A stretch of DNA of 64,000 bases from Candidatus Woesearchaeota archaeon. GTDB lineage: Archaea; Nanobdellota; Nanobdellia; Woesearchaeales; WJIZ01. The translations under genes were made by a program, and so were the position numbers. Of this stretch, positions 19,466-42,511 are shown piece by piece; within the stretch, counting starts at the first letter, position 1; the number at the start of each line of letters is the position of its first letter. The notes under the pieces are model-generated. The model was not told the DNA's origin, made no database searches, and saw nothing but the letters and a program-made list of their open reading frames with translations. Where the stretch lies: positions 3,264 through 67,263 of the forward strand of contig JAAOYF010000045.1 of NCBI GenBank assembly GCA_018221205.1. Direction: 5' to 3'.

Positions 19466-19477
19466 TTAGTTTACCTT

Positions 19478-20509: not shown

Positions 20510-20644
20510 ATAATGGGGAATAAAAATAGCATTTATAAAGCTTCCCTTTTTGTTACTATTATATAGTGATATATAAATTGTATAATTTATTTTATCGTCT
20601 TTCTTGCTTATTTTCAATATAGAAAATAATTAAGGCAAAAAAAA

Positions 20645-22795: not shown

Positions 22796-23555
22796 TTTGC
22801 AGTTCCTTATCTGACTCGCGCACCTTTTCTGCATGCGTCTCTCTATATGCCTGGAGTTGATCATACTTCTTCATGATCTCTGCTGCTGCGATGGCTGCAT
22901 TCTCTCCCCTATTCAGGCCGACCCAGAGACCGTTCTTGGAATGCTTCAATACATTCAAGGCAGCTTCTGCAGAATCATCATCTTTATCCATAAGAGGGAC
23001 ATAGATGACCAATTCATTCGTATCGATCGCATCTTCATTCAGACTGGCAAACTTGATGTTCAGTGAGTTTGTTAGTTGATCTGACCATTCATACGGAAGG
23101 GAAAACTCATCTAAAAGTGAAGTGCATTTCTGCGCTGCCTTTGCATCCTTATCGCCGATAAGGTTGATCTTTTCTGCTCCTTTGAGGATGTGCAAGGCCA
23201 TAACAGCAGCAACGCCTGCCTTGTCCACTCCGACTCCCAAGACAGGGATGCCTGGAGGCATCTGCATGATCGAAAGAACCGCATCTAATCCTTCATAATT
23301 TGATTTTACAGGGACACCTATGACTGGACAGAGCACTTTAGAAGCGACGACTCCAGGTAGATGGGCTGCTAATCCAGCACCTGCGATAATGAGGTCATAC
23401 GGATTCTGAAGAATCTCATGGACTTCATCAGGGGTGCGATGTGCAGAGCTTATCCTTACATCATGATCGATCTTCTTTTCTTTCAATTCTTTAGAAATTT
23501 CCTTATAGATATGCTGGTCTGATTTTGAGCCGAAGATAATCAATACTTTAGGCAT
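22788..23555 (-). CDS. purE: N5-CAIR mutase PurE with a C-terminal extension of about 100 aa that repeats the PurE C-terminal motif.
   Basis: SAHRTP, AGAGLAAHLPGVVAS..PVIGVP. The extension ends in a GENAAIAAAEI-like motif. Confidence 0.8.
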   Translation of the reverse strand: MPKVLIIFGSKSDQHIYKEISKELKEKKIDHDVRISSAHRTPDEVHEILQNPYDLIIAGAGLAAHLPGVVASKVLCPVIGVPVKSNYEGLDAVLSIMQMPPGIPVLGVGVDKAGVAAVMALHILKGAEKINLIGDKDAKAAQKCTSLLDEFSLPYEWSDQLTNSLNIKFASLNEDAIDTNELVIYVPLMDKDDDSAEAALNVLKHSKNGLWVGLNRGENAAIAAAEIMKKYDQLQAYRETHAEKVRESDKELQNA

Positions 23556-23596
23556 TTTATCACCAAGAAAAAGCAAACAAAGTAGGTTTAAATAGT

Positions 23597-28300: not shown

Positions 28301-28518
28301 ATTATCTTCTCCACAGTCTCTGGTGTTATGGGATTGAAGTAGACTTCATCTGCCAAATGCTCAGAGGTCTGGATTGTCGCGATGTTTGGATTGATGAGAA
28401 TGGTCTTGATGCCTTCTTCTTTCAAGGCTTTGATGGCTTGGCTTCCTGAATAATCAAACTCTCCTGCCTGGCCTATCTTGATGGCGCCGCTACCTAAGAT
28501 CAAAGTCTTCTTAGCCAT
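25318..28518 (-). CDS. carB: Carbamoyl-phosphate synthase large subunit.
   Basis: Two ATP-grasp halves plus an MGS-like C-terminus, 1066 aa. The stop overlaps the pyrG start. Confidence 0.95.
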   Translation of the reverse strand: MAKKTLILGSGAIKIGQAGEFDYSGSQAIKALKEEGIKTILINPNIATIQTSEHLADEVYFNPITPETVEKIIKKEKPDSIMLSFGGQTALNCGVELYKRGILRKHKVKVLGTPVKTIEVTEDRKLFVDKLDQIKVKTPRSIATSSVKEAIKAAKKIGYPVMTRVAFALGGLGSGMCIDEQELAEKAKQAFSKVKQVLIEEYLAGWKEIEYEVVRDQYDNCITVCNMENFDPMGIHTGESIVVAPSQTLTNKEYHKLRDIAIKVIRHLGIIGECNIQYALDSRSEDYRIIEVNARLSRSSALASKATGYPLAFVAAKLGLGYSLTEVKNSITLATKACFEPSLDYIVIKIPRWDLEKFRLVKREIGSEMKSVGEIMAIGRSFEETLQKAIRMLGKDMHGLVCNDIKFKNLEKELQQPTDERVFAIAKAFQQGYSVDRIYALSKIDRWFLHKLGNIVKMGKKIKSARKLSKLSKEILKEAKQNGFSDYQLAHLLKTNPDEVRKKRLQLKITPFIKQIDTLAAEYPARTNYLYLTYNAQENDIVFNKGKQVMVLGSGAYRIGSSVEFDWCCVSTALTLRKLGYKTIMLNYNPETVSTDYDICDKLIFDEVSLETVLDIYEKEKPLGLIVSMGGQIPNNLAAKLHERKVPILGTSPDSIDNAENRHKFSRLLDDLGIDQPEWKELSSIKEAKRFVKRVGYPVLIRPSYVLSGAAMSVAFNDQSMNAFLKLASKVSKEYPVVISKFINNAKEVECDAVAFKGKLVCWAISEHVENAGVHSGDATIVLPPQYLYLETARRIKNIAKAIAKKLNITGPFNIQFLAKENQVKVIECNLRASRSFPFVSKIFKVNFIDVATRAIMNEKLPKIEKSAFELDYVGVKAPEFSFSRLKGSDPILSVEMASTGEVACFGDDIHEAFLKSFLSVGYTIPKKNIFLSTGTPETKAILLESCHLLKKMGYTLYSTFGTHAYLKEHGVSTTPLYWPLEDKKPNVMDYLKNRKIDLVINIPKNFEREEVTNDYYIRRTAVDYNTPLITNTQVAKLFIQAISQYQEKDLLVKPWSAYREEGVHR

Positions 28519-29584
28519 TTTTTACCCTCTTGATGAATCTATCAAACAAGAATGCTGTATCCACCGGCCCTGGACTGGCTTCTGGATGGAACTGCACACT
28601 GAAAAAAGGCTTTCTCTTGTGGATGATACCTTCATTCGTCCCATCATTAGCATTCACAAACCATTCTTCCCATCCTACGGGGAGCTTTTTCGGATTGACG
28701 GCAAAACCATGATTTTGAGAGGTAATGAAACAGCGTTTTGTGCCTTTCTCTATGCAGGGCTGGTTCTGGGAGCGATGGCCGAACTTCAGCTTGTAGGTAT
28801 CGCCGCCGGCAGCTAAAGCGAGAAGTTGGTTTCCCAGGCAGATTCCAAAGATAGGCTTCTCTTTCTGGAGTGCAATCTTGATATTTTCTATGGTCTCCTG
28901 CGCCATCTTTGGGTCGCCAGGGCCATTAGAGATGAAAAGGCCGTCATACTGATGCTTGTTGAAATTATAGTCAAAAGGAACCCTGGTTACTTTCACCTTT
29001 CTCCGGATGAATGACCTGATGATGTTGTATTTACATCCTGTATCGACAATCATGATCCTCCTTTTCCCTTTTCCATACTGAGTAACCTTTTTAGGGGAGA
29101 CCTGTTCAACGAGATTCTCTTTATTGGGATTATAGAAACTGATATTTTCCTTATTGATGATTTTGCCAAGCATGCTGCCCTTTGTCCTGAGCTTTTTTGT
29201 CAGGGCGCGAGTGTCTATGCCGTAGATGCCTGGAATGTTCCCATCTTTCATCCAGTCGGATAATGAAGAAGAGGCATTCCAATGGCTATAGTTATGGGAA
29301 TAATCTGAGATGATCAATCCTTTGATATGGATTCTTGAAGATTCAAAGAACTTCAAGAGCTTATGCTCCACCTCTTTCGGAGGGACACCATAATTGCCTA
29401 TCAAGGGATATGTCAAAACGAGAATCTGTCCCCGATATGATGGGTCAGTCATGGTCTCGGGATAGCCTACCATACCGGTGTTGAAGACAACCTCTCCTGC
29501 TTCAGAACTGTCTGCACCAAACGGCTTTCCTTCAAAGACAGAGCCATCTTTGAGAACAAGTCTTGCCAGAGTTTTTTCTTTCAT
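28511..29584 (-). CDS. carA: Carbamoyl-phosphate synthase small subunit.
   Basis: The GATase motif GICLGNQLL and an N-terminal CPSase small-chain domain. Confidence 0.92.
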   Translation of the reverse strand: MKEKTLARLVLKDGSVFEGKPFGADSSEAGEVVFNTGMVGYPETMTDPSYRGQILVLTYPLIGNYGVPPKEVEHKLLKFFESSRIHIKGLIISDYSHNYSHWNASSSLSDWMKDGNIPGIYGIDTRALTKKLRTKGSMLGKIINKENISFYNPNKENLVEQVSPKKVTQYGKGKRRIMIVDTGCKYNIIRSFIRRKVKVTRVPFDYNFNKHQYDGLFISNGPGDPKMAQETIENIKIALQKEKPIFGICLGNQLLALAAGGDTYKLKFGHRSQNQPCIEKGTKRCFITSQNHGFAVNPKKLPVGWEEWFVNANDGTNEGIIHKRKPFFSVQFHPEASPGPVDTAFLFDRFIKRVKNG

Positions 29585-29713
29585 CTCTGGGATATTTCAG
29601 AAGACAGACCGATTAATAAGCTTTTGTATTATGGAATGGCTATTTTACCGTCGAGAAGAGAGCACTCTCAATATGTTGATTTCGGAGTGAGTTTCTGTTT
29701 TTAAATGTTGTGG

Positions 29714-30154
29714 CTAGATAAATTCATACTCTTGATAGTGTTCGCTATATAATAAATCCTTGAGAATCTTTTCGGCTGTCTCTTTGCTATCGACATGCAT
29801 CTTCCATAACACACCTTGACGCATGCTATGGAGGTTGTCGAAGCCTAATTGTTCTCTCAAAGTTTTGAACAAGGGAGCGTCTCCTTTATTTATGACCACT
29901 GCATTGAATGTTTCGTGTTTGGGTGCGTCTTCTACCTTGTAGATCGAGGTGGAATGCTTATTTGCATTGACGACGATATCTGTCTGGACAATATCCTTCA
30001 TGAACTTTTCTGCATCTTTTAAGACTTCAAATTCATAGAAGTCTTCTCTTTCTAGCTTTTTTAATTCTTTGAAACCCATCTTCTCAAGAGTATGGAAGGC
30101 AGTTATGCAGGTAGTGTCGGGAATCTTGAGTTTGACCAATAGCCGTATCTTCAT
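29714..30154 (-). CDS. purS: FGAM synthase PurS subunit; it appears to be a tandem duplication of the PurS fold.
   Basis: It sits directly downstream of and overlapping purQ. Two repeats of about 70 aa show the PurS-like beta-alpha pattern. Confidence 0.55.
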   Translation of the reverse strand: MKIRLLVKLKIPDTTCITAFHTLEKMGFKELKKLEREDFYEFEVLKDAEKFMKDIVQTDIVVNANKHSTSIYKVEDAPKHETFNAVVINKGDAPLFKTLREQLGFDNLHSMRQGVLWKMHVDSKETAEKILKDLLYSEHYQEYEFI

Positions 30155-30912
30155 CTTATGTATTCCCTCATGGATTCAAAGATTTTAGCAGCGGCTGCTA
30201 ATGACATAGCATCTTCGAAGTTGTTCATGGTCTTCTCTTTGAGATGCTTCTTGAAAAATGCCCTTTCGGGATGAGGCATCATCGCCAACACATTCCCTTT
30301 CTTATTGGAAATGCCAGCAATGTTTGCTGTGGAGCCGTTTGGATTAGCAGCAGCATTGATAGTTCCGTTCTCGTCGCAATATTTGAAGACTATCTGATCA
30401 TTCTTCTCAAGCCCCTCTACCAATTGAACATCATTCGTTACAAATCTTCCTTCGCCGTGAGCAATGGGGATGTCGATGATATCTTCTTCGTAGAATGCAT
30501 TGAATGCGTTCTTCTTTCCGACATTCTTGATCTTGACCCAGGTGCAGTAATAGCCGCTCACGACAGGATTGATATTCGGGGCGACAGCCATATGCACCTT
30601 ATCCTTCAGTCCGGGAATCAGTCCAGCTTCCACCAATATCTGGCAGCCGTTGCAGATGCCCAAGACAGGCTTTCCTTTTTTTGCCTGCTCCTTTATCTTC
30701 TGCATCAACGGATCCTTGGCAGAGATGACTCCGGCCCGGATACGGTCTTCATAGGACCAGCCGCCTGGCAAAACAAAGCCATCATACTCATCCAGGTCTT
30801 TCTTGGTGTTCCATCTAAGGATATCTGCCTGCATCCCTACTGCATCGCACGCTAGCTTGGTCTCATTTTCGCAGTTGGTTCCGGGAAAATAAATCACGGC
30901 TATTTTTTTCAT
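30151..30912 (-). CDS. purQ: FGAM synthase glutamine amidotransferase subunit.
   Basis: MKKIAVIYFPGTNCE, GICNGCQIL, and a catalytic His-Glu near the C-terminus. Confidence 0.9.
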   Translation of the reverse strand: MKKIAVIYFPGTNCENETKLACDAVGMQADILRWNTKKDLDEYDGFVLPGGWSYEDRIRAGVISAKDPLMQKIKEQAKKGKPVLGICNGCQILVEAGLIPGLKDKVHMAVAPNINPVVSGYYCTWVKIKNVGKKNAFNAFYEEDIIDIPIAHGEGRFVTNDVQLVEGLEKNDQIVFKYCDENGTINAAANPNGSTANIAGISNKKGNVLAMMPHPERAFFKKHLKEKTMNNFEDAMSLAAAAKIFESMREYIR

Positions 30913-30913
30913 T

Positions 30914-31324
30914 TTAGCTTGCGTAGCAATCCTCCTTGATCTGCTGCAGCGTAGCTATCCTCTGTTGAGAGGGATCTAATTGTTCATCGAGCTCTTGCTG
31001 CAATGTATCATCAATCTCAATATATGCTTCTTCAAACGCATCTTGGGTCATGGCGAGCTTCTCTTCCGGATGGATCTCACCGCACCATCTTTCGGGAATC
31101 TCCTTTTCCTGTGCTAATGCATGCTGGACTATGGTCATAAAACACTCATTCCTTGCGATAACTGTCCTTTTACAGGCATTCTCTGCCTGCTGCATATCTT
31201 CTCTCTGGATGAACTTTGATGCATAATCATGATAGGTCAGATCCAGCTTATACCGTTGGGCAAGCTGTTCATCATACTGGGTGCAGGCTGTCATGAGTAT
31301 CAACAATGCTATGAGCCATCTCAT
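30914..31324 (-). CDS. Small lipoprotein, hypothetical.
   Basis: Lipobox MRWLIALLILMTAC. Its ATG overlaps the purL stop (ATGA coupling). Confidence 0.45.
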   Translation of the reverse strand: MRWLIALLILMTACTQYDEQLAQRYKLDLTYHDYASKFIQREDMQQAENACKRTVIARNECFMTIVQHALAQEKEIPERWCGEIHPEEKLAMTQDAFEEAYIEIDDTLQQELDEQLDPSQQRIATLQQIKEDCYAS

Positions 31325-33642
31325 TGTAGCGCCTCTGTAAATCCAGAGGTCCATGCTTTTTTCATCTCTTCAATAGATAATCGGAATTGTTTATCTTTTG
31401 CGGTGAATCTCAGATCTGAACCTCCGGTCTCACCGAGGATCATTGCATCTGGAAACATCTTCTTGATTTTTGGGATGTGTCCATTATCAACCTCGAACAC
31501 AAAGCCAGAGCTTTCGCTGAACAATATCTTTGATAAAGGTAAGGAAGAGAAATCTAAGTTAATAGAAGCTCCAATCTTTCCATCTGCCTCTCCTCCCAAC
31601 ATCATCTCAGCTACGGTTGTCAACAATCCGCCATCTGAGATGTCATGGCAGCTCAGGATAAGTTTCTTTTCTATGGCATCGATAATGGAATGGATCATCT
31701 TTTTTTCTTTCTCATAATCGATTTCAGGAACATTCTTTCCGAGATGATCATGGAGCTCGTAATATACTGAACCCCCTAACTCATCCTTCCTTTCGCCGAC
31801 CAGGAATAAGGTAGAGTTCTCTTTCTTGATCTTCATGGTTATTGCTTTGCTCACATCTTCCAATTTGCCCAGACAGGCGACAACTGGAGAGGGCGCTACT
31901 GATTTTCCGGCTGCGCTTTCGTTATAGAAGGAGACGTTTCCTCCGATGAACGGAACTGGTCCTTGTGTTCCTTTCAGATGGAGCCTGGAAGTGGCTTCTG
32001 CCAATCCTTTCACTGCTTCAGTGAATTCTGCAAACTGCTCTGGCTTCTCTGGGTTGCCAAAGTTCAGGCAGTCAGTCATCGCGATTGGAACGGCTCCTAC
32101 TGCTGCAACATTCCTCATCGACTCTGCGACTGCATTGATGGCAGCCTGTTTTGGATCAATCAATGCATAACGAGGATTTGCGTCTGCTGACAAAGCCAGA
32201 CCTGCAGGACAGCCGTCTATCGGAGCCTGCACTCCTGCATCTGCCTCTCCTGCTCTGATGACTGCCAATCCTTGGACTTCAGTATCATAGTGCTTATAGC
32301 ACGCTAATTTAGAAGCGACTGTAGGGTGAGAGAGCACTTTCAGGCACATGTCCTTATAATCTGGTTCAGCTATTGATGGCTCTTTTCCTGTATATTTTTT
32401 TTGGCGAGATTCTCTTTTATATTTTATGCCTTGAGTTATCTGGTTGACATCAGCATTGCAGATGATCTTTCCTTTATGTCTCAGGACATAGTTGTTCTCT
32501 TTCGTTACGGTGCCGACAACAGATGCTTTGGCGCCTTCTGAGACACTGGGCAAATCAAAATCTTCATTATAGATTTTAAGAATAGTAGGGGTAAAATCTT
32601 TCGGGCAGATCCAGGTGAATCGCTCTTGGGTTTCAGAGCATGTTATCATGTAGGGAGGAAGATTATGCATCGAGACATGGATCTTATCAATGTCAATGTC
32701 TGCTCCGAAACATGCTGAGCTTGTCAGCTCGGTTGTGGCGCACATTATGCCGCCAGCGCCCATATCCTTGAAGCCGACTGGAATATTTTTTTCTCTTACA
32801 ATTTTGAAGACTGCTTCTGTTGCCCTGAAGAGAACATTCTTCAGGAATGGATCAGGCACTTGCACTGCTCCCCTGTTGCTTTCCCTATCATCTTCATCTA
32901 GGATAACTGAAGCGAATGTTGTGCCGCCGAAACCAGAATTGTCTGTCGCTTTTCCTACAATGATGATATCGAAACCTTCTGCATCCTTGGGAGCATGGCT
33001 ATGGATGATTTCCTTTTCCTTGATGAGCCCTAATGTAATGACATTCACCAGACAGTTGTCATCAAAGCTTTCATTGAAATAGACATCTCCACAGATGACT
33101 GGAACACCTAGGGGATTTCCATATCCTGCTATGCCTTCAATTACTTGCGATGCGATATATTTTGTGCGATTTTTATTTTTGCCAAAGGGATTTCCGAATC
33201 GTAATGGATCGCCGCAAGCAATAACTCTGGCACCCATACAAAGAACATCTCTTACATTGCCGCCTATGCCTGTTGCCGCACCTTCAAAAGGAATAACTTG
33301 GCTTGGATGATTGTGAGATTCATGCGACATAGCAATGCCATACTTATCGCCCTGCCATTCTGTGAACAAAGCAATGCCTGCATCTTCCTTCGGGCCGAGG
33401 ATGACTGTAGGGCCCTCTGTAGGTAGTTGCTTAAGAATATCCTTGGAACTCTTATAGCTGCTATGCTCAGACCATTGTGTATTGAAGATATGCAGTTCGG
33501 TAATAGTAGGATCTCTTCCGAGAATCTTAGGCAGTTTCTTTATCTCTTCTATGCTAAAACCCAGGCCATTCTCTTTAATGAGCGCAGAAAGCTCTTTATC
33601 TGAAAGGTCGAGATTTATCGTGTTTATGTCGATATCCCCCAT
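31321..33642 (-). CDS. purL: FGAM synthase II (large subunit).
   Basis: AIR-synthase-related N- and C-domains, 773 aa. Confidence 0.92.
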   Translation of the reverse strand: MGDIDINTINLDLSDKELSALIKENGLGFSIEEIKKLPKILGRDPTITELHIFNTQWSEHSSYKSSKDILKQLPTEGPTVILGPKEDAGIALFTEWQGDKYGIAMSHESHNHPSQVIPFEGAATGIGGNVRDVLCMGARVIACGDPLRFGNPFGKNKNRTKYIASQVIEGIAGYGNPLGVPVICGDVYFNESFDDNCLVNVITLGLIKEKEIIHSHAPKDAEGFDIIIVGKATDNSGFGGTTFASVILDEDDRESNRGAVQVPDPFLKNVLFRATEAVFKIVREKNIPVGFKDMGAGGIMCATTELTSSACFGADIDIDKIHVSMHNLPPYMITCSETQERFTWICPKDFTPTILKIYNEDFDLPSVSEGAKASVVGTVTKENNYVLRHKGKIICNADVNQITQGIKYKRESRQKKYTGKEPSIAEPDYKDMCLKVLSHPTVASKLACYKHYDTEVQGLAVIRAGEADAGVQAPIDGCPAGLALSADANPRYALIDPKQAAINAVAESMRNVAAVGAVPIAMTDCLNFGNPEKPEQFAEFTEAVKGLAEATSRLHLKGTQGPVPFIGGNVSFYNESAAGKSVAPSPVVACLGKLEDVSKAITMKIKKENSTLFLVGERKDELGGSVYYELHDHLGKNVPEIDYEKEKKMIHSIIDAIEKKLILSCHDISDGGLLTTVAEMMLGGEADGKIGASINLDFSSLPLSKILFSESSGFVFEVDNGHIPKIKKMFPDAMILGETGGSDLRFTAKDKQFRLSIEEMKKAWTSGFTEALQ

Positions 33643-33665: not shown

Positions 33666-34514
33666 TTATATAGTTTTTGCTCCTTCACGGATTATCCAGA
33701 TTCCTGAGCCTATGATCAAGAGGCCTCCAAGGAAGGAAAGCATATGAAGAGTTTCCTGGAATATCAGGAAACCAAAGAACACTGTGAAGACTATCTCGAT
33801 ATAGGCGATGATGCCTGCATGCTGTGCCAGCACTATTTTCAGTCCCTTTAAGAAGAGCAGTACTGCAATAACTCCTCCCACTACAGCAAGATATGCCATC
33901 AATCCAAAATCAACGAGTGATGGTATTACTCTTGGTAGAAACGGCAGGGCAAGAACTGCAAGGCCGAGATTTGTGTAGAACATAAGTCTTAATAGGGGAT
34001 TTTTTGCCACATATGCTTTGTAGACTGTCAAGTTCACTGCATAAGCCAACGCAGAACCAAGTCCGAGCCAGATTCCCCAGACATCTTTCTGAGAGATAGC
34101 CCCGAACTGGAACAATAATGCCAGACCTGCCATAGATATGACTATGGCAACAAGGCTTTTCCAATGGAATTTCTCTTTCAGGAAAAAGACTGAGAGGATC
34201 AAGACAAAAACAGGCATGGTATAATGGCTGAACATAGCGTTGGCAAAAGAAGTCAAGCGGAGAGCAGAGAAGGTAAGAGCGATATTACCTAATGCAGAAA
34301 GGATGATTAGGGGATAGAGTTTTATGGGCTGAGGGAACTTCAACAGGTTTCTGTCCCTGATCACTATGGCAAGCATAACGACGAACTGAAGGACGAAAAC
34401 AACAGCCAAGAGCTGCATCAGAGGGAGAGAGATGAAACGGACAAAAACCGACTGTATAGAAAAAAGAAGCATAGCAAGAATGATGAACATACTGCCTTTA
34501 ATATAAGAATTCAT
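33666..34514 (-). CDS. EamA/DMT-family transporter.
   Basis: Ten predicted transmembrane helices. The duplicated EamA pattern. Confidence 0.65.
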   Translation of the reverse strand: MNSYIKGSMFIILAMLLFSIQSVFVRFISLPLMQLLAVVFVLQFVVMLAIVIRDRNLLKFPQPIKLYPLIILSALGNIALTFSALRLTSFANAMFSHYTMPVFVLILSVFFLKEKFHWKSLVAIVISMAGLALLFQFGAISQKDVWGIWLGLGSALAYAVNLTVYKAYVAKNPLLRLMFYTNLGLAVLALPFLPRVIPSLVDFGLMAYLAVVGGVIAVLLFLKGLKIVLAQHAGIIAYIEIVFTVFFGFLIFQETLHMLSFLGGLLIIGSGIWIIREGAKTI

Positions 34515-36288: not shown

Positions 36289-36308
36289 AATACTATTTTA
36301 ATAGTATT
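36289..36308. promoter_or_regulatory. A 20-bp palindrome AATACTATT-TT-AATAGTATT in the promoter of the wHTH-ATPase operon.
   Basis: Perfect 9-bp arms with a 2-nt spacer. The TATA-like CTTTATAAATT lies about 25 nt downstream, and the wHTH ORF starts at 36353. Confidence 0.45.
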
Positions 36309-36352
36309 TTAAGTTTAAAATCGAAAGCTTTATAAATTCGTCATCAGGATAA

Positions 36353-36589
36353 GTGTATGTGGCAGGAACAGGGAAAAGAACGTTCAAACAACTGCAGAAA
36401 CTTATTCTTAGAAGCCTGAAGGCTCGTCCTCTAACGATCAATGAGATCTCTTCTAAAAGTAGAGTGAACTGGAATTCTACTGCAAAGCAATTGATCCTAT
36501 TGAAAGGCCATGAATTAGTCAAAGAGATAATCAGTCACCGAAGATTAAGGGTATTTGAGCTTACCAAAAAAGGGAGAAAACTGTTATGA
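36353..36589 (+). CDS. Small winged-helix transcriptional regulator.
   Basis: LQKLILRSLKARPLTINEISSKSRVNWNSTAKQLILL is helix-turn-helix plus wing. A 20-bp palindrome lies in its promoter. Confidence 0.55.
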   Translation: MYVAGTGKRTFKQLQKLILRSLKARPLTINEISSKSRVNWNSTAKQLILLKGHELVKEIISHRRLRVFELTKKGRKLL

Positions 36590-39024
36590 AGCGACTATTG
36601 ATTTTAGGGCTCCTTCTTTTTGCGAGCTTTGCTGCTGCTGTCACGACCGAATCCTATGTCCTCGAGCCAGCGATGATCACTGGCGCCCTGGAACTGGATG
36701 ACCACTTCACCCAAAGCCTGTTTATCCAGAGCAGGGGACGTGAACTGAGCGGGACGTTATCTGTCTCAGGAAATGCCTCTTCTTTAGTGAGCTTCAACAG
36801 GCATGAATTCACTGTCCAAGCACTGCAGGAGACAATCCTCAATATCAATCTCTTCGGCATCGAAGAGACAAACTTCAACGAACAGGAACTCATCGCCTAT
36901 CCCAGATACTACAGCGGCATCATCCATGTCAAAGGTGATATCAACCAGGATATCCCTCTGGAGATTGTGGTCAACCAGCGAGGGAACAAGAATGCAGGCT
37001 CTTTGATCCTGCAACTCAAGCCTCTCCGCACCAATGTCATCGTCGGCAGAAATCTGAGATATGTCGTCGACCTGCAGAATGTCTTTGCGAGCAAGCAGTT
37101 CGACGTCAAGCTGAGACATCGCCTGGTGAGACTGAGGAACGACCTCAATAGGACGTCGGGACCTATCCGGTTCGATAAGGAAGAGATCAATGAGAGCGTC
37201 CTCCTCAGCGAGGACAATCTCACGCTGATCAAGAGCTTCTCCCTGCCAAAGGATTTTGCTATCGAGAAAAACTTCACGACTGGAGAGTATATCCTGCTCA
37301 TCCAGGCAGAATATTTAGGATTGCTGTCAGAGAGCGCTGCTCTCATCGAGTTCCAACTTCCGTTTCTCAAGAAGAGGGCTTTCGGCTTTTTCCCCTATTG
37401 GCTCATTCTCTTGCTCCTTACTCTAGGGGCAGTTGGTTTTGTCACCTATAAGATCATCAAGCATGAGATGTCAAAAAGAAAGAGATTCAATGCCAAGGTG
37501 GATTATAAGGAAGTGCCTAAAGAAGGGCCGAGAAGCCTGTTTGTGGGAATGATAGCAGAGACTAATAAGCGGGCTTATTTTGATATGGATATCTTGACTG
37601 TCCATAGTATTGTGGCTGGATCTACAGGTGGAGGAAAGAGTATCGCAGCGCAGGATATTGTCGAAGAAGCATTGATCAAGGGAACTGCAATCGTTGTGTT
37701 TGATCCGACTGCTCAATGGTCTGGCATGTTGCGGAAGTGCGTCGATAAGAAGATGTTGAGTTTCTATCCTAATATGGGCATGAAAGCAAAAGAGGCCCGA
37801 TCTTTCCCGGGAAACATCAGGGCAGTCAAGGATGGAAGAGAGGTCATCGACATCCATAAGTACTGGAAACCTGGAGAGATCCAAGTCTTCACCACCTCTA
37901 CTTTAGATCCAAAGGATTATGACATCTTTGTCGCTAATACAGTAAGAGAAATCTTTCACAGCAACCTCCAGGAATTCAGGGGTTTGAGACATATGCTCGT
38001 GTATGATGAGATCCATCGTATCTTGCCGAAATTCGGCGGCTCTGGACAAGGTTTTATCCAGATTGAACGTGGATGCCGAGAGTTCCGAAAGTGGGGAATC
38101 GGCATCTTGCTGATCTCTCAGGTGCTGCAGGACTTTGTCGGACAGATCAAGGCCAACATCAATACCAACGTACAGATGAAGACACGAGATGAGGGCGACT
38201 TGAACAGGATCAAGACCAACTATGGAGAGCAGTTCATCCAGGCATTGATCAAAGCTCCTGTAGGCAGCGGGATGGTCCAGAACTCTGCTTGGAACAGAGG
38301 AAGGCCGTATTACGTGACATTCCGTCCTATCCTGCATTCGGTGATCAGGCTGAGCGATGAAGAGCTTGAGAAATATAATCAATATAATGATGTTGTCGAC
38401 GATCTGGAATTCCAGTTTGAACAGCTGGAAAAAGAAGACCAGGATGTGTTCGACCTCAAACTTGAATTGAAACTGGCCAAAGATAAAGTCAAATCGGGCA
38501 ACTTCAACATGGTGCAAATCTATCTTGATGGCCTTACCCCTCGTGTCGAGAAGATCTGGAATAAGATAGGGAAGAAGCCCCAGAAAATGGAGAGAAAGCT
38601 CATTGATGTTGGGGCGATGGAAGCAGAGCTACAGCAGGCAAAAGAAGAGCATGAGCAAGCTGCAGACAAGGAGAAGCAAGAAAAGAAGAAAAAGGTGGAG
38701 ACGAGGAAGGAAGAGAAAAAAGAGGTCAAGCTGAGCAAAGAGCAGATCGCTGCCAATATTGAGAGCATAGGCCAGTTGGGCAAGCAGATAGAGGGATTGA
38801 TACTCCATAAAGACTGGATGACCATCAATGATCTCCTGATGGAGATCAAGAACATTCCTTTGCCTAAGGAGAGTGCTGCGAAGAAAGAGGCAACAGTCAA
38901 GAAACTCGAGGAGGCTATTGAGCTGGGGAAGAATCCGCCTAAGGAAGAGAAGAAGGAAGCGGTAAAACCACAGGAAGCGGTAAAACCAGCTGCCACAAAT
39001 GGAACTCCTAAGGCAAAGACCTGA
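36586..39024 (+). CDS. Membrane-anchored HerA/FtsK/VirB4-superfamily ATPase. It has a signal peptide, an extracellular beta-rich domain, one transmembrane helix, a cytoplasmic P-loop ATPase, and a K/E-rich coiled-coil tail.
   Basis: Signal MKRLLILGLLLFASFAAA. Transmembrane helix FFPYWLILLLLTLGAVGFVTY. Walker A VAGSTGGGKSIAAQDI. Walker B LVYDEIHRI. Overlaps the wHTH gene stop. Confidence 0.65.
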   Translation: MKRLLILGLLLFASFAAAVTTESYVLEPAMITGALELDDHFTQSLFIQSRGRELSGTLSVSGNASSLVSFNRHEFTVQALQETILNINLFGIEETNFNEQELIAYPRYYSGIIHVKGDINQDIPLEIVVNQRGNKNAGSLILQLKPLRTNVIVGRNLRYVVDLQNVFASKQFDVKLRHRLVRLRNDLNRTSGPIRFDKEEINESVLLSEDNLTLIKSFSLPKDFAIEKNFTTGEYILLIQAEYLGLLSESAALIEFQLPFLKKRAFGFFPYWLILLLLTLGAVGFVTYKIIKHEMSKRKRFNAKVDYKEVPKEGPRSLFVGMIAETNKRAYFDMDILTVHSIVAGSTGGGKSIAAQDIVEEALIKGTAIVVFDPTAQWSGMLRKCVDKKMLSFYPNMGMKAKEARSFPGNIRAVKDGREVIDIHKYWKPGEIQVFTTSTLDPKDYDIFVANTVREIFHSNLQEFRGLRHMLVYDEIHRILPKFGGSGQGFIQIERGCREFRKWGIGILLISQVLQDFVGQIKANINTNVQMKTRDEGDLNRIKTNYGEQFIQALIKAPVGSGMVQNSAWNRGRPYYVTFRPILHSVIRLSDEELEKYNQYNDVVDDLEFQFEQLEKEDQDVFDLKLELKLAKDKVKSGNFNMVQIYLDGLTPRVEKIWNKIGKKPQKMERKLIDVGAMEAELQQAKEEHEQAADKEKQEKKKKVETRKEEKKEVKLSKEQIAANIESIGQLGKQIEGLILHKDWMTINDLLMEIKNIPLPKESAAKKEATVKKLEEAIELGKNPPKEEKKEAVKPQEAVKPAATNGTPKAKT

Positions 39025-39073
39025 TTCTGGAGTCATAACACATCTTTATATATGATGACGCTATTATAGGACT

Positions 39074-39364
39074 ATGGTTGATGAGAAGATAAAGTTGAGA
39101 CGGCCTAATCTGTTTGAGAATATGCTGCTCGTCATGAGCATCCTGGCAACAGGCATCGGCTATTTCTTTGTCCATCAGATGGTGTTGCAATATAGCTTAA
39201 TCAGTTTTGAGAGTACGATGGCAGTGCTGCTCTGGCTGCTGCTCATCATCTTCATCATCAATGTCTCGGTAAATGAGAACTCGAAAGAGGAACTGAAGAT
39301 CCTCATCAAGCAGCAGCATGAAGAGATGAGAATATTAAGGCATGATCTGAGAAGAAAACGTTAA
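39074..39364 (+). CDS. Small membrane protein.
   Basis: Two hydrophobic helices. No family. Confidence 0.35.
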   Translation: MVDEKIKLRRPNLFENMLLVMSILATGIGYFFVHQMVLQYSLISFESTMAVLLWLLLIIFIINVSVNENSKEELKILIKQQHEEMRILRHDLRRKR

Positions 39365-39633
39365 CGCCTTGCGAGGCTCCTTCTTTTATTGAAAAGATTC
39401 AGGATATTATCTGAGAACAATAATCCAAGGAAGAAGAGATAGCCGAGGGTGAAGAACACAAGGCCGACAAACAAAGGCTTGTTCTCTATAGGGGAGAATT
39501 TCTCATTTGGGGCGATTTCAATCTGCCAAGAGGATCTTAATGCGACCAAGAAGGTGGTGCTTAAAATAAGCGGCATGGTTAGGAATGAAAAAATCATGAT
39601 CTTCTTACCCTGTGACCAGTTTTCGATATTCAT
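39361..39633 (-). CDS. Small membrane protein.
   Basis: Two to three hydrophobic helices. Overlaps the pilin gene start. Confidence 0.3.
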   Translation of the reverse strand: MNIENWSQGKKIMIFSFLTMPLILSTTFLVALRSSWQIEIAPNEKFSPIENKPLFVGLVFFTLGYLFFLGLLFSDNILNLFNKRRSLARR

Positions 39634-40064
39634 TGGCAGTTCCTCAGCCTTTCTAATTCAACTCTCTTGCTGATGCAATCCTCCTCTCCACTAGAAGGTA
39701 TCACCCTTATTTTTAAAATTTGTGTCACTTCCAATCCTGAAAGGGGAAACGAGACCTTCTTGAAACTCCCGGGAGCGATGCCTTCTGTCATCTCCTCTGT
39801 GAGGACCGCGTCCTGGGTGAGAAGCACAATCTTCAGCCTGTCGATGTGTGTTGGGCCGTTGTTCTCGACAACAGCCTCAATCGATGAGGGTGTGAGGCAG
39901 ATCTCTTTTCTCTCTTCAAGCGTCACGATGCCGAGTTCGACCTCTTTGCAGGAAAAGTCCTTCACTGCACCCCATGACATCACCAAAGTACCAAGTCCGA
40001 TGGCAAATCCTAACAGAAGAATGGTGCTCACTAAGGGTGTTATGCCTTTTTTCATTTCAGCCAT
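39630..40064 (-). CDS. Archaeal type IV pilin-like protein with a class III signal peptide.
   Basis: MAEMKKGITPLVSTILLLGFAIGLGTLV, the classic KG/ITPV pattern. Confidence 0.55.
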   Translation of the reverse strand: MAEMKKGITPLVSTILLLGFAIGLGTLVMSWGAVKDFSCKEVELGIVTLEERKEICLTPSSIEAVVENNGPTHIDRLKIVLLTQDAVLTEEMTEGIAPGSFKKVSFPLSGLEVTQILKIRVIPSSGEEDCISKRVELERLRNCQ

Positions 40065-40318
40065 TTATCGATCTTTTTTTCTTCCCTATGGGTTATGCGA
40101 ACGTACGGAACAGCTCCTGCAAGAAGGATTATGATGCCCAATAGGATCAGGGTATTGAGCATGAAAGGATCGATATAGTCAAAGAAGAAACCTAAAACTG
40201 CAATGAGCATGAATATGATATACAAAGCGAGGCTTTTGTCGAGAATTAATTTTGCTTTTTCTCTGGCTATGCGTGATTTTTCGAGTTCTAGATGGATCTT
40301 CATATCCTTAGATACCAT
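40052..40318 (-). CDS. Small membrane protein.
   Basis: Two transmembrane helices. Co-operonic with the pilin. Confidence 0.3.
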   Translation of the reverse strand: MVSKDMKIHLELEKSRIAREKAKLILDKSLALYIIFMLIAVLGFFFDYIDPFMLNTLILLGIIILLAGAVPYVRITHREEKKIDKWLK

Positions 40319-40393
40319 AGCAAAACTTTTGCTTGTAGATTATATAAATGTTTGCCCGATAGATTTATATAAATTCATTCAAGCAAAAAAGGT

Positions 40394-41140
40394 ATGGCTG
40401 AGATGACTCCAGAGCAGCAAGCTGAACTCAGGAAAAAGCTCGAAAGCATGAGTCCTGAGGAATTAAAGGAATTCCAGAAGAAGCAATGCATCTTCTGCCA
40501 TATGGTTTCTGGAAAGGTTGCTGTGAAGAAGATCTATGAAGATGATAAAGTTCTTGGAGTGTTAGACATCAATCCTGCCAATCCGGGACATGTCCTCCTT
40601 CTTCCCAAAGAACACCACATGATCATGCCTCAGCTTCCTGAGGATGAGCTGCAGCATATCTTCAAAATATCTAAACAGCTGAGCAACACTGTCCTTCGTG
40701 CATTAGATGTCAGGGGGACAAATATCATCGTTGCCAACGGGCCGGCTGCAGGGCAGAGAGCGCAGCATTTCATGGTGCATATCATCCCGAGAAAAGAGAA
40801 GGATGGATTGGAGTTTTCGTTGCCCTCTCATCAATATGCTGAGGAGCAGCTTGAGCAGACAGCTCAAGTCGTGAAGCAAAAACTCAATGCGCTGCTAGGA
40901 ATTGATGAAAAACCAGTGCCCAAATTAGTTGATGATGAATTCAAGCCAAAAGAAGAACCCGATGAGGAATCTGATGAAGATGCTGATGATGAAGATGCTG
41001 ACGACTCGGAAGATGATGATTCTGATGAAGAAAAAACAGATGATGAAACTGATGAAGATGACTCGGATGAAGGAGATGATTCTGATGAGAAGGATAGTGG
41101 ATTAGACCTTGATGCGATTGGGAGGCTGGTCAATGGCTGA
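40394..41140 (+). CDS. HIT-family hydrolase with a poly-acidic D/E/S C-terminal tail.
   Basis: The histidine triad HFMVHIIPR. A tail of about 70 residues of D, E and S. Confidence 0.8.
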   Translation: MAEMTPEQQAELRKKLESMSPEELKEFQKKQCIFCHMVSGKVAVKKIYEDDKVLGVLDINPANPGHVLLLPKEHHMIMPQLPEDELQHIFKISKQLSNTVLRALDVRGTNIIVANGPAAGQRAQHFMVHIIPRKEKDGLEFSLPSHQYAEEQLEQTAQVVKQKLNALLGIDEKPVPKLVDDEFKPKEEPDEESDEDADDEDADDSEDDDSDEEKTDDETDEDDSDEGDDSDEKDSGLDLDAIGRLVNG

Positions 41141-41660
41141 TTGCGTCATTTGCAAGATCATCAAGGGAGAAGTTCCTGCCAAAAAGATCTATGAAGATGA
41201 TGATATCCTCGCTTTCTTAGATGTGAATGGTGCGGCAGAAGGGCATACGTTTGTTGTGCCCAAGCATCATTATCCAATCTTCGAACAAGTGCCTGATCCT
41301 TTAGTAGGGAGATTGTTCTCTGTCTCAAATAAGATATCTACTGCGCTTTTTGAGACCCTCAATGTGCAAGGAACAAATCTTTTTGTGACGAACGGAGTGA
41401 GCGCAGGACAGAGTGTAGCGCATTTTGTCATCAATATCATTCCGCGAAAAGAAGGAGACGGCATCAACCTGCAATGGCAGACCAGGCAGCTCTCTGAAGA
41501 GGAGATGTCCACTGTAGAACTTAAACTGAAAGATGGGGCAGCACATGTGGGCGTGACTGAGAGTGAGGATGTCATTGAGAAGCCCATAGAAAAACGTAAG
41601 GTCGTTTCTGGTAGGGAAGAAGACTATCTCTGGCGGAGCGTCAACAAAAAGATAGGTTAG
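41133..41660 (+). CDS. HIT-family hydrolase, a second tandem paralog.
   Basis: AHFVINIIPRKEGD. The start is taken at MADCVICKI. Confidence 0.8.
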   Translation: MADCVICKIIKGEVPAKKIYEDDDILAFLDVNGAAEGHTFVVPKHHYPIFEQVPDPLVGRLFSVSNKISTALFETLNVQGTNLFVTNGVSAGQSVAHFVINIIPRKEGDGINLQWQTRQLSEEEMSTVELKLKDGAAHVGVTESEDVIEKPIEKRKVVSGREEDYLWRSVNKKIG

Positions 41661-42511
41661 AATAGCAGATATAATATATTTCCAAAGAATAATGTCAGGA
41701 TCCAGCCGAACAGAAAGCTCGGCACAAAGGGAATGCCTTCTTTCACTAAGATTCTCTTGATCTTCTTTTGTTTATAGAGCCTTTTCAAGATGGCTATCTG
41801 CTTCTTCGTCACTCCTAGATCCTTCGGACCGGTGACGTGTTTTCCTGCATGCTTGATCTCTTTTGCTATCCAGTCTCCTTCTGTCAACAATGAAGGCTCG
41901 ACAAGCTTATACATCGATGATTTCTCCACTGCCTTTATCAATATCCAGAGATAAAAGGTGAAGAAGACCGCTACTGCAAAGGTGAGGAGCATCATCCTGA
42001 TACCGAAGTGCGGAAAGAAAAACCCGCCCAAAAGAAACACTATAGTGAAGGCCAGCATGACTCTTCTTTGTCTTCTCGCCTTCTGGATCACTTTTAGATA
42101 TTCTTTCGTGAACTTTTTTCTATTCTTGAACGCAAGGACAATGCTCCATATCAATCCATAGACTGCACCCGCTATCAAGGTGTTTATGAGGAATCCTACT
42201 AAAAAGAGAGAGTCAATATTGAAGCCGTATAATGCTCCCAGACCCATAAGCAGCTTGGCGTCTCCGCCTCCCCATTGGCCAGTATAGAACATCGCCAATG
42301 CAAGGACAATGAATATGGCCAGCCCGAAGAGACTATTCATTATATACATCGGATCATGATGCACCAAAGAGAAGGTGAGGTTTGCAGCAAGGGCGAATGC
42401 GATAAGGCCATAATTTGCCCAGTCTGCTATCTCGCGAGTCTTCAGATCTGAGATGGAACCGGTAAGCAGATAGATTCCTGAGATGACATGCTTTATGAGT
42501 AATTCAATCAT
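41657..42511 (-). CDS. Archaeal prepilin/preflagellin peptidase (A24 family, PibD/FlaK-like).
   Basis: A polytopic membrane protein. It has the first catalytic Asp region (SDLKTRE) and the GGGDAKLL motif. Confidence 0.7.
   Translation of the reverse strand: MIELLIKHVISGIYLLTGSISDLKTREIADWANYGLIAFALAANLTFSLVHHDPMYIMNSLFGLAIFIVLALAMFYTGQWGGGDAKLLMGLGALYGFNIDSLFLVGFLINTLIAGAVYGLIWSIVLAFKNRKKFTKEYLKVIQKARRQRRVMLAFTIVFLLGGFFFPHFGIRMMLLTFAVAVFFTFYLWILIKAVEKSSMYKLVEPSLLTEGDWIAKEIKHAGKHVTGPKDLGVTKKQIAILKRLYKQKKIKRILVKEGIPFVPSFLFGWILTLFFGNILYLLF

Follow-up and report, generated by a model that had tools for sequence, protein, structure and literature searches.

The region lies within a 64,000-nucleotide stretch of Woesearchaeota (DPANN) DNA that was analysed as a whole and is referred to here as the window (Table 1). 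It opens with a short gene encoding a winged-helix (wHTH) protein, which matches the Pfam family HTH_45 (E 2.8e-4, short of the gathering threshold) and whose stop codon overlaps the ATG of the following ATPase gene by 4 nt (ATGA), bearing out the first-pass annotation of a winged-helix gene overlapping the ATPase start. The wHTH start is fixed by the orthologue at locus L084, since the latter begins MAGTGKR. Orthologues with 61-72% identity and the identical 4-nt overlap are found at L001, at L084, and on the P0004 contig, and the translational coupling is kept in 4/4 close relatives. The wHTH gene is thus translationally coupled to the ATPase gene in one operon, which its product may autoregulate. 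The TATA-like box begins 30 nt before GTG 36359, in a block that is kept in the alignment with L084 and L001; judging from the archaeal promoter consensus, which is established knowledge, it would be the promoter of this operon, which is probably leaderless. The candidate operator is located ~21 nt upstream of the box. The palindrome noted at first pass is perfect, and the core ATACTA-N6-TAGTAT recurs in the orthologous locus L084, about as far from the TATA box, while L001 has a half-site; however, the palindrome rises barely above chance, being matched by 4.9% of dinucleotide shuffles (148-nt spacer, 82% A+T; p ~0.05).

Table 1. Features of the region, in window coordinates or ATPase residues
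Feature	Position	Strand	Description
Module 1	36289-39024		wHTH and short-form HerA-like ATPase operon
Inverted repeat, candidate operator	36289-36308	none	AATACTATTttAATAGTATT; AATACTATT-tt-AATAGTATT, perfect 9+2+9 palindrome
TATA-like box of wHTH-ATPase operon	36329-36336	+	TTTATAAA, preceded by a GAAAG BRE-like stretch
wHTH	36359-36589	+	76 aa from GTG 36359; ORF opens at GTG 36353
HerA-like ATPase	36586-39024	+	812-aa type-I membrane protein
ATPase signal peptide	residues 1 to ~20		N-terminal hydrophobic signal-like segment at 1-23
ATPase ectodomains	residues 24-130, 140-257		two β-sandwich domains
ATPase TM helix	residues ~268-298		second hydrophobic helix at ~265-292
ATPase HerA-like RecA core	residues 317-580		Walker A GSTGGGKS 345-352; Walker B MLVYDE 470-475
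ATPase tail	residues 591-782		helical, K/E-rich
TATA-like box of sm96	39045-39052	+	TTTATATA, 22-29 nt before ATG 39074
Module 2	39074-42511		sm88-pilin-sm90 operon, convergent sm96, two HIT genes, A24 prepilin peptidase
sm96	39074-39364	+	96-aa membrane protein, convergent with pilin operon
sm90	39361-39633	-	90-aa 2-TM protein, third gene of pilin operon
Pilin	39630-40064	-	144-aa type IV pilin-like protein, class III signal peptide KKG|ITPLVST, four conserved cysteines
sm88	40052-40318	-	88-aa 2-TM protein, first gene of pilin operon
Two tandem HIT-family genes	40394-41660	+	Pfam HIT E 7e-19 and 3e-20
A24 (FlaK/PibD-type) prepilin peptidase	41657-42511	-	GGGD; Pfam Peptidase_A24 47 bits; NCBIfam FlaK E 1.9e-16
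Second class-III-like ORF	2219/2237-2716		starts MKKAQAAMEFL...

The signal peptide, the transmembrane (TM) helix, the P-loop Walker motifs and the K/E-rich tail previously noted in the ATPase are all seen in its sequence, and the succession of an outer domain, a TM helix and an inner ATPase is family-wide, with a TM helix located 30-95 residues before Walker A in 84 of 88 relatives. The DUF87/HerA central domain (Pfam PF01935) matches the protein with 33.5 bits against a cut-off of 23.2, and the AF2 model reaches a pLDDT of 77. The catalytic residues K351, D474, E475, R495, R498 and Q512 are invariant across 32 homologues, and the DE-x-H motif at Walker B and the E-x-R-K-x-G...SQ motif are conserved. 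The RecA core is catalytically intact, with the ectodomains predicted outside the cell and the motor and tail in the cytoplasm. A profile search of the PDB reports HerA-type chains as the best hits (E 2.5e-8 to 3e-5), and these outrank VirB4 and T4CP chains both by sequence and by fold.

Beyond the ATPase, sm88, the pilin gene and sm90 form an overlapping minus-strand operon convergent with it. TATA-like boxes of their own precede the small genes, that is, sm96 and the pilin operon, the box at 39045-39052 being the putative promoter of sm96. Two hydrophobic stretches are visible by eye in sm96, of which a 19-residue hydropathy scan flags one. The pilin carries the class III signal motif MAEMKKGITPLVSTILLL, scores 17.8 bits with NCBIfam TIGR02537 (cut-off 20) and E 4.5e-4 with UpsA, and has an N-terminus that is invariant across the alignment. 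At E<1e-3, its AF2 model (pLDDT 82) matches a single PDB entry, 8fk7, an archaeal type IV pilin of Pyrobaculum. Like archaeal type IV pilins, it combines a [KR][GA]|[IL]TP N-terminus, a hydrophobic helix and a β-sandwich head with an A24 peptidase close by (1.6 kb away). The assignments of the pilin, of the prepilin peptidase (Pfam Peptidase_A24 and FlaK matches, GGGD) and of a second pilin-like gene far upstream in the window are all upheld. Unlike known archaeal pilus loci, the pilin is flanked by conserved 2-TM mini-proteins, sm88 and sm90; to our knowledge, such proteins have not been described as components of these loci. The 64-kb window also departs from the usual archaeal type IV pilin systems in having no gene for a PilB/ArlI ATPase or a PilC/ArlJ platform, no PilB/FlaI- or PilC-type protein being found among 43 window proteins scanned against Pfam (among them every ORF of at least 250 aa taken as a gene, except a 282-aa membrane protein at 33666-34514). 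The assembly ATPase and platform protein of the pilin module would be encoded outside the window.

The first-pass annotation assembled the regulator, the ATPase, the three small membrane proteins and the pilin into one surface or transfer apparatus, in which the HerA-like ATPase would power the building of a filament from the neighbouring pilin. The genes are adjacent in the window, and the contig of a fourth close relative, P0004, probably resembles it: on a comparison of gene size and strand, its ATPase gene is directly followed by convergent genes whose products have 90, 149 and 94 aa. Every sequence feature listed at first pass is present, yet the genes are arranged differently: the pilin, sm90 and sm88 are on the minus strand, and only sm96 shares the strand of the ATPase. 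Given the opposite strands and separate promoters, the four small genes do not extend the ATPase operon downstream. Moreover, the block from the wHTH gene through the ATPase to the pilin comes apart in other genomes, the sm88-pilin-sm90 trio being kept in independent loci devoid of ATPase and wHTH in their sequenced flanks; wherever a pilin locus comes with flanks of several kb (L086, L088, L091, L094/L095), the ATPase is missing. Within the trio, sm88 is the best-conserved gene, and sm90 is kept after the pilin in L086-L089, L091, L093-L096 and L098. Homologues of sm96 (55-60% identity) are convergent to the trio in L086-L089, again without the ATPase, and sm96 belongs to the pilin module rather than to the ATPase operon. 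HIT genes lie beside the trio in L086-L088, L092 and L097, and an A24 peptidase lies near it in L086-L088 and L097. Reciprocally, the flanks of 80 other ATPase loci (~8 kb, as far as the contig reaches) contain no homologue of sm96, sm90 or the pilin except one weak sm96-like match and one weak, distant pilin-like match, which leaves 79 of the 80 without a pilin. In addition, the assembly of type IV pilins in archaea depends on an ATPase of the PilB/ArlI type and a PilC/ArlJ platform rather than on a HerA-type ATPase (PMC4858521). A paralogous branch of sm88, C28 (HMM E 2e-20), is found directly downstream of short-form ATPases in the distant genomes of L048, L063, L076 and L080, which speaks for a joint apparatus and leaves room for some functional contact between the modules. 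The comparative data nevertheless largely refute a single machine, which we consider very unlikely. We favour, with moderate confidence, two independent abutting modules, a wHTH gene with a membrane HerA-like ATPase and a conventional type IV pilin module, which are adjacent through local genome arrangement and not as a joint apparatus. Because all the synteny was read from MAGs and metagenome contigs whose organisms are related, shared ancestry inflates the apparent conservation. An IMG/VR search returned one weak match, and the locus family is read as not viral.

The ATPase returns 591 matches, with at least 573 genomic relatives, and those with informative record titles are all DPANN. At E<=1e-30 the family comprises 347 cluster representatives of up to 6253 aa, with the motor near the C-terminus and ectodomains of ~250 to ~5,600 aa; it is a large, unstudied, DPANN-wide family of membrane-anchored HerA-like ATPases. 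Most members reside in a canonical operon comprising two RHH proteins, a ~1000-aa PKD protein, the ATPase, DUF5752 proteins and a coiled-coil protein, genes that recur in 49-67 of 81 loci. None of these partners (RHH, PKD protein, DUF5752, coiled-coil) is present in the 64-kb window, and the window ATPase is a solo short paralogue. The window ATPase is linked to the hexameric HerA DNA translocase of Saccharolobus solfataricus (PDB 4d2i) by its above-cut-off match to PF01935, the sequence family that fits it best, by a PDB profile hit (E 7.8e-7) and by the DE-x-H and E-x-R-K-x-G...SQ motifs. By sequence, its closest PDB entries are HerAs of anti-phage defence and of repair, and PADLOC reports mad8 (48 bits) and HerA (45 bits), as might be expected of a housekeeping HerA-NurA DNA-end-resection helicase or of an anti-phage HerA of the Sir2-HerA, DUF4297-HerA or MADS type. 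Unlike these, however, the DPANN ATPase is a type-I membrane protein with a Sec signal, a β-sandwich ectodomain of 250 to 5,600 aa and a single TM helix before the core; it has no N-terminal HAS-barrel, only ~45 residues separating the TM helix from Walker A, and a long helical, TPR or DUF5752 tail follows the core. The family also occupies a conserved chromosomal operon across DPANN rather than variable defence islands, and no NurA, SIR2, DUF4297 or nuclease partner is found among the scanned window proteins or at the loci with precomputed Pfam annotation. The soluble housekeeping HerA with NurA that the first pass had raised against its own proposal can hardly be what is encoded here, and an anti-phage HerA is just as unlikely.

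The Ced/Ted systems, domesticated type IV secretion systems for DNA import or export, offer another comparison, with the ATPase in the place of CedB/TedB/VirB4 and the small 2-TM proteins as counterparts of the VirB2/CedA1 pilins. The membrane anchoring of the ATPase fits this view, as do the small DNA-binding proteins coupled to it (a wHTH protein in the window, two RHH proteins in the canonical operon) and the three 2-TM hairpin proteins encoded close by. Measured against the defining features of these systems (PMC9905601), however, the window and the canonical operons contain no VirB6/CedA-like channel protein of 6-7 TM helices, and the small proteins bear no similarity to VirB2, CedA1 or TedC and instead accompany a pilin of class III and an A24 peptidase. 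The ATPase itself has a large N-terminal ectodomain unlike VirB4 and CedB as described there, is closer to HerA than to VirB4, and matches NCBIfam CedD and TraC over the P-loop only, with 20-21 bits against cut-offs of 567-600. With neither a VirB6- nor a VirB2-like partner found, membership in the Ced/Ted group is unsupported, and we regard it as improbable.

In its overall design, the ATPase is reminiscent of TrwB/VirD4 (T4CP), FtsK/SpoIIIE and EssC/EccC (type VII secretion), in which a membrane anchor at the N-terminus precedes a hexameric motor of the FtsK-HerA type; from the cytoplasm, this motor threads DNA or protein to the membrane or across it, a logic that the DPANN protein, hexamer included, may share. 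Sequence similarity to these proteins is marginal (E 0.2-0.7), and they possess 2-4 TM helices and essentially no ectodomain, whereas the DPANN family is single-pass with a large, fast-diverging extracellular part. A motor of the EssC/EccC kind could export or anchor, as a hexamer, the giant β-sandwich surface proteins whose genes neighbour most members: large secreted PKD/CarboxypepD_reg proteins are a constant of the canonical operon, giant proteins of 1000-1900 aa are often encoded there too, and the family's own ectodomains reach ~5,600 aa. Yet the closer relatives, HerA, DptH and VirB4, all handle DNA, no large secreted partner gene adjoins the solo copy in the window, and a dedicated exporter is not obviously needed because the ectodomain already has a Sec-type signal peptide. 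This specialised role is thus a possible but rather doubtful one. By analogy with all characterised membrane-bound FtsK-HerA superfamily ATPases, the protein is likely to work as a hexameric translocase at the membrane, acting on DNA or protein, with the hexamer, substrate and direction modelled on these relatives. The ATPase would most likely form a hexameric ring beneath the membrane, which would use ATP to thread a polymer towards the cell surface or away from it. The polymer would be DNA or else a protein, unfolded or secreted, and the ectodomains may form an outer collar or adhesin.

A long paralogue, P0005, probably belongs to the same MAG as the window copy, as suggested solely by the closeness of their accession numbers (same series). 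Between it and the window ATPase, the motor cores are 90% identical, against 33% for the ectodomains, so that the short form probably equips a shared motor with an alternative ectodomain. In tandem ATPase pairs elsewhere, the motor protein is 100% identical while the ectodomains are 27-36% identical. Given the β-sandwich ectodomains and the conserved neighbours carrying PKD and CarboxypepD_reg domains, a surface-related role for this ATPase family is plausible.

The window is chromosomal DNA from a Candidatus Woesearchaeota (DPANN) MAG. The 812-residue ATPase is 100% identical to NCBI MBR9699881.1, entered as a 'DUF87 domain-containing protein', and passes the corresponding Pfam model, PF01935 (33.5 bits, cut-off 23.2). 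A hydropathy scan reports a signal-like segment at its N-terminus and a second hydrophobic helix, also present in the AF2 model (pLDDT 77), that is directly followed by seven Lys/Arg within 22 residues. The model comprises two β-sandwich domains ahead of this helix, a RecA-like core behind it and a helical tail, the final 212 residues of the protein containing 43 K/R and 43 D/E. In the alignment used to test for the downstream R/K-G...SQ sensor and finger motif, ERGCREFRKWGIGILLISQ is unchanged across 32 homologues and the catalytic residues are invariant. The first-pass annotation was largely right in what it observed, every motif that it quoted being present in the sequence, and went wrong on the gene layout, in which strands were misread. 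A profile built from the 32 homologues returns confident PDB hits with HerA-type chains only (E 2.5e-8 to 3e-5), FtsK and IcmO being marginal and VirB4 not figuring among the sequence matches. The RecA-like fold superposes on that of solved HerA, and by fold VirB4 also comes below HerA (S. solfataricus HerA, 19.4; DptH C-domain, 18.8; VirB4, 16.6; Deinococcus HerA, 16.4; TrwB, 14.2; IcmO and EccC, 12.5 each; FtsK, 12.2). Bona fide HerA carries an N-terminal HAS-barrel before the core, whereas the ATPase is devoid of one: in the AF2 model only ~45 residues, with a β-hairpin, separate the transmembrane helix from the Walker A motif, leaving no space for such a domain. Given the HerA-type PDB matches, the DUF87 hit, the lack of room for a HAS-barrel and the invariant catalytic residues, the protein is a motor of the HerA branch placed in a new context, anchored to the membrane, and neither a repair HerA nor a recognisable VirB4/CedB.

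Positions of the features in the window and in loci of relatives (L numbers); residue numbers refer to the ATPase.
Feature	Locus	Position (strand)	Details
Class-III-signal-like ORF	window	2219-2716 (+)	MKKAQAAMEFLITHGW..., no Pfam match
TruB/Cbf5-type pseudouridine synthase gene	window	2750-3715	adjoins the preceding ORF
Rfam tRNA matches	window	14816-14929 (+); 15407-15519 (+)	113-114 nt
Nucleotide-synthesis genes	window	17485-33642 (-)	
Palindrome	window	36289-36308	9+2+9, perfect
wHTH gene	window	36359-36589 (+)	GTG start
ATPase gene	window	36586-39024 (+)	812 aa
Signal-like segment	ATPase	residues 1-23	hydropathy scan
β-sandwich domains	ATPase	residues 24-130; 140-257	AF2 model
Transmembrane helix	ATPase	residues ~265-292	hydropathy scan; 271-298 in AF2 model
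β-hairpin	ATPase	residues 317-333	AF2 model
RecA-like core	ATPase	residues 317-580	AF2 model
Walker A	ATPase	residue 345	GSTGGGKS
Walker B	ATPase	residues 470-477	MLVYDEIH
Helical tail	ATPase	residues 591-782	AF2 model
sm96 gene	window	39074-39364 (+)	own TATA-like box
sm90 gene	window	39361-39633 (-)	
Pilin gene	window	39630-40064 (-)	
sm88 gene	window	40052-40318 (-)	
First HIT gene	window	40394-41140 (+)	
A24 peptidase gene	window	41657-42511 (-)	GGGD motif
wHTH start	L001	5768	GTG
wHTH start	L084	2051	TTG
Canonical operon	L010	3299-15993	further examples in L039 and L026
Tandem ATPase pair	L003	1433-8373	motor core protein 100%, DNA repeat 100% across 1548 nt
Tandem ATPase pair	L005	5895-12193	motor core protein 100%, DNA repeat 98.6%
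Tandem ATPase pair	L016	4103-10523	motor core protein 100%, DNA repeat 97.4%
Tandem ATPase pair	L004	4523-10719	motor core protein 92.5%, DNA repeat 84.7%
sm88 homologue after short-form ATPase	L048	10491-10814	
sm88 homologue after short-form ATPase	L063	9771-10112	
sm88 homologue after short-form ATPase	L076	10327-10674	
sm88 homologue after short-form ATPase	L080	2358-2702	

The known systems built on such motors differ from this locus. In the HerA-NurA complex a soluble HerA is encoded next to nurA, usually with mre11/rad50, whereas the ATPase has a signal peptide and a transmembrane helix; no NurA, Mre11 or Rad50 domain was detected among the scanned window proteins or in the annotated loci L001-L006, and membership of this complex fails on the HAS-barrel and on NurA. 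The definition of the Ced/Ted systems includes VirB6-like and VirB2-like genes, a polytopic (6-7 TM) VirB6/CedA/TedA-like channel protein being encoded with the ATPase (PMC9905601). No VirB6/CedA-like polytopic channel gene adjoins the ATPase in the window, and no such family occurs among the conserved neighbours at 81 ATPase loci. The NCBIfam models CedD (21.4 bits, cut-off 600) and TraC (20.2 bits, cut-off 567) match the ATPase far under their cut-offs and over the P-loop region only. As for a VirB2/CedA1/TedC-like two-helix pilin, the hydropathy scan marks the small membrane proteins sm88 and sm90 nearby as 2-TM hairpins; inspected by eye, sm96 resembles one too, though the scan picks out a single segment. 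None of the three has a Pfam or NCBIfam family match, and they co-vary with the class III pilin and not with the ATPase. The lack of a VirB6-like gene and the low CedD and TraC scores place the locus outside the Ced/Ted systems, and no VirB2-like gene was recognised by family models. In working manner the ATPase most resembles T4CP, FtsK/SpoIIIE, EssC and CedB, pumps of the FtsK-HerA superfamily that are tethered to the membrane.

Readings of the ATPase as a housekeeping repair or a viral packaging enzyme were likewise rejected. A role in anti-phage defence was discarded since PADLOC reported just weak HerA and mad8 matches and no effector. A viral or mobile origin fares no better: IMG/VR has almost no trace of the family (one weak match), PHROG matches are weak and partial (phrog_7035, E 4.5e-9 across 75 residues; terminase, 27 bits), the window has an even G+C of 40-47%, and its flanks are housekeeping, with purine/pyrimidine synthesis genes, folC, a PAP2 gene, GrpE-DnaK-DnaJ, Rnf subunits and ribosomal proteins.

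The ATPase belongs to a large family, to which it is 44-65% identical over the full length and 57-85% in the core, and it displays the family features, namely a signal/anchor, an ectodomain, a single transmembrane helix ~70 residues before Walker A, and a helical tail; the motor is highly conserved, with FDPTAQW and REFRKWG motifs. A word-indexed protein search yields 591 matches in two size classes of ~800 and ~1300 residues, a one-genome-per-species scan at least 573 relatives, and HMMER, run exhaustively with the motor domain alone as query, 347 cluster representatives at E<=1e-30. The latter range from ~450 to 6253 residues, the motor lying close to the C-terminus in every case. A transmembrane helix lies 30-95 residues ahead of Walker A in 84 of 88 members, and 79 of the 88 have exactly two hydrophobic segments. 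Giant members include P0199 (6253 residues), P0233 (5743), P0264 (5559) and P0167 (4862, Woesearchaeota); those giants that carry an organism name come from Woesearchaeota. Arrays of β-sandwich modules make up the ectodomains of the giants, and Pfam recognises little else in them. As the same motor sits near the C-terminus of these giants, the ectodomains of the family span ~250 to ~5,600 residues. Informative record titles among the at least 573 relatives read Woesearchaeota, Nanoarchaeota, Nanoarchaeia or unclassified archaeon. Many TPA-assembly contigs with the family and the same operon (L007, L008, L010, L012 and others) are titled 'uncultured Methanosarcinales archaeon', which is probably placeholder or wrong taxonomy, all other labels of the family being Woesearchaeota, Nanoarchaeota or unclassified archaeon. 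In the library searched, no paper on the family or on its DPANN operon came up; the family is a large, DPANN-specific and apparently undescribed form of a familiar type of motor.

Clustering of the ORFs of 81 ATPase loci reveals a strongly conserved operon, the partner families recurring in 49-67 of them. Its order is two RHH proteins (one or two in 51/81 loci), a ~1000-residue protein with PKD, CarboxypepD_reg and MopE-like motifs (64/81), the ATPase, one or more DUF5752-type proteins (domain in 67/81, sometimes fused to the ATPase), a ~360-residue coiled-coil protein (49/81) and, often, a ~197-residue protein and one of giant size (1000-1900 residues). KaiC-like ATPases occur at 10 of the 81 loci. 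None of the RHH, PKD, DUF5752, coiled-coil and other canonical partners is found in the 64-kb window. Instead, the wHTH-ATPase pair stands beside folC and a PAP2 gene upstream, an arrangement kept in all four members of its clade (the window, L001, L084 and the contig of the relative P0004). The genes that follow the ATPase vary within this clade; L084 and L085 possess a ~145-residue helical and a ~265-residue basic protein there, as do loci with tandem ATPases.

In the family tree, the window ATPase and that of L001 are sister to a clade with long and short paralogues in tandem. The ectodomains of tandem paralogues are only 27-36% identical while their motor cores are nearly or fully so, and in L005 and L016 all DNA differences inside the 280-residue core are silent at the protein level. 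Identical motor proteins, silent DNA differences and divergent ectodomains together indicate concerted evolution of the motor and suggest its gene conversion, alongside diversification of the surface part. For L003, the 100% DNA identity could also be an assembly artefact. The window ATPase compares in a like manner with P0005 (1287 residues, MBR9699503.1), whose accession is from the same series: 33% identity in the ectodomain, 90% in the motor core and 77% in the tail. Because this pattern resembles the tandem pairs, the window gene is best read as the solo short paralogue of a long form that lies on another contig, probably of the same MAG.

The upstream wHTH ORF ends with ATGA, overlapping the ATPase start codon. 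Its start was placed with the L084 orthologue (72% identity, beginning MAGTGKR). All three orthologues for which DNA is available have non-ATG starts, each ~30 nt past a TATA box, which suggests a weakly translated leaderless regulator; in the window, the TTTATAAA box 30 nt ahead of the GTG would fit a leaderless archaeal promoter. The palindrome further upstream is unconvincing on its own, as 4.9% of dinucleotide shuffles equal it (p about 0.05) and the spacer is 82% A+T. Its core, ATACTA-N6-TAGTAT, is found again in L084, ~30 nt ahead of the TATA box there, and a half-site in L001; the recurrence in L084 lends some weight to the palindrome as a plausible candidate operator.

Downstream of the ATPase, the small membrane proteins and the pilin had been taken for a continuation of the same gene row, whereas sm90, the pilin and sm88 lie on the minus strand, converging on the ATPase, and sm96 is on the plus strand. 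The sm88-pilin-sm90 operon has overlaps of 13 nt and 4 nt. The pilin bears the class III motif KKG/ITPLVSTILLL, and the family N-terminus K-[AG]-[IL]-T-P-L-[IV]-S-T is invariant among 13 aligned homologues, in a family with four conserved cysteines. It scores 17.8 bits with TIGR02537, just below the cut-off of 20, and its AF2 model (pLDDT 82) exhibits an N-terminal helix (residues 9-31) and a β-sandwich, the sole PDB match at E<1e-3 being the Pyrobaculum archaeal type IV pilin 8fk7 (E 3.5e-4). The A24 peptidase matches PF01478 (47.3 bits, cut-off 26.5) and NCBIfam FlaK (E 1.9e-16). The window thus shares a class III pilin and an A24 (GxGD) prepilin peptidase with archaeal type IV pilus systems; no PilB/ArlI (VirB11-family) ATPase or PilC/ArlJ platform was detected among 43 window proteins scanned against Pfam, and PilB/PilC-type genes are presumably encoded elsewhere in the genome.

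The loci L086/L087 and L088/L089 contain the same block as the window (A24, HIT, HIT, sm88, pilin, sm90 and a convergent sm96; 46-84% identity), with neither ATPase nor wHTH gene in up to 9 kb of flank. A metagenome scan adds eight more distant pilin loci, none with the ATPase, in which the order sm88-pilin-sm90 is kept wherever the contig reaches and sm88 is the best conserved of the trio (49-59% identity). In the opposite direction, 80 other ATPase loci searched with family HMMs for sm96, sm90 and the pilin yield no match beside the ATPase, apart from one weak sm96-like match and one weak pilin-like match 7 kb from the ATPase. Since the module is kept without the ATPase and ATPase loci are without the pilin families, the pilin module is an independent unit, a normal archaeal type IV pilin locus without local ATPase or platform genes, and the single surface or transfer apparatus proposed in the first-pass annotation is unsupported. 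In several genomes the two HIT genes keep synteny with both the pilin module and the A24 peptidase gene, and the first HIT protein ends in a ~70-residue tail almost wholly of Asp/Glu and Ser. A second class-III-signal-like ORF lies near the start of the window (Table).

One protein family does occur in both settings. A 2-TM homologue of sm88 (HMM E 2e-20, ~38% identity) is encoded directly downstream of short-form ATPases in L048, L063, L076 and L080, where it precedes two or three KaiC-like ATPases. The family, assembled by HMMs on the loci (the word-indexed protein search gives 2 matches), has two contexts, as first gene of the pilin trio or between short-form ATPase and KaiC-like genes. With identities of 49-70%, against 28-49% for the pilin that follows it, sm88 is the more conserved of the two. 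The family could be a membrane adaptor shared by both modules; equally, these mini-proteins could go with KaiC- or pilus-type functions whose genes at times lie beside the ATPase.

Elsewhere in the window, Rfam reports two tRNA matches whose length is consistent with introns of the archaeal type, and ARAGORN reports none. A long minus-strand run encodes de novo nucleotide synthesis (adenylosuccinate lyase, NDK, SAICAR synthetase, AIR carboxylase, CTP synthase, large and small chains of carbamoyl-phosphate synthase, and parts of FGAM synthase). DPANN genomes are often described as devoid of such pathways, which makes this run notable.

For the ATPase, the topology signals, the intact active site and the HerA-type fold are established, as are its conserved coupling to a small DNA-binding protein and the family-wide association with secreted β-sandwich proteins. 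It would form a hexameric ring beneath the membrane and translocate a polymer. DNA is slightly favoured as the substrate, the nearest relatives being HerA, DptH, VirB4 and T4CP and the operons starting with wHTH and RHH genes; export of proteins, as by EssC/EccC, is a serious alternative. With DNA or other polymers as cargo, the family might be the motor of an undescribed DPANN-specific cell-surface translocation apparatus, a proposal that we consider rather improbable. In such an apparatus, a hexameric HerA-type pump would retain a constant cytoplasmic engine, its paralogues being kept identical by gene conversion, while interchangeable, fast-evolving ectodomains of 250 to 5,600 residues would contact the host, and polymers would be moved between symbiont and host cell. 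The wHTH-coupled solo short form would provide an alternative ectodomain or a regulatory subunit mixing into the ring, and the sm88 mini-proteins would serve as a shared membrane adaptor tying the machine to pilus biogenesis.

In annotation, the neighbouring pilin operon should be kept apart from any transfer system, and the window contains just a solo paralogue with its own regulator; it is the ATPase family that deserves follow-up. DPANN archaea need a host to supply nucleotides, lipids and, often, DNA, and to our knowledge the molecular machines at the DPANN-host contact site are largely unknown. A near-universal operon of Woesearchaeota and Nanoarchaeota, centred on a type-I membrane HerA-like ATPase that bears hypervariable β-sandwich arrays at the surface, is an obvious candidate for such a contact machine.
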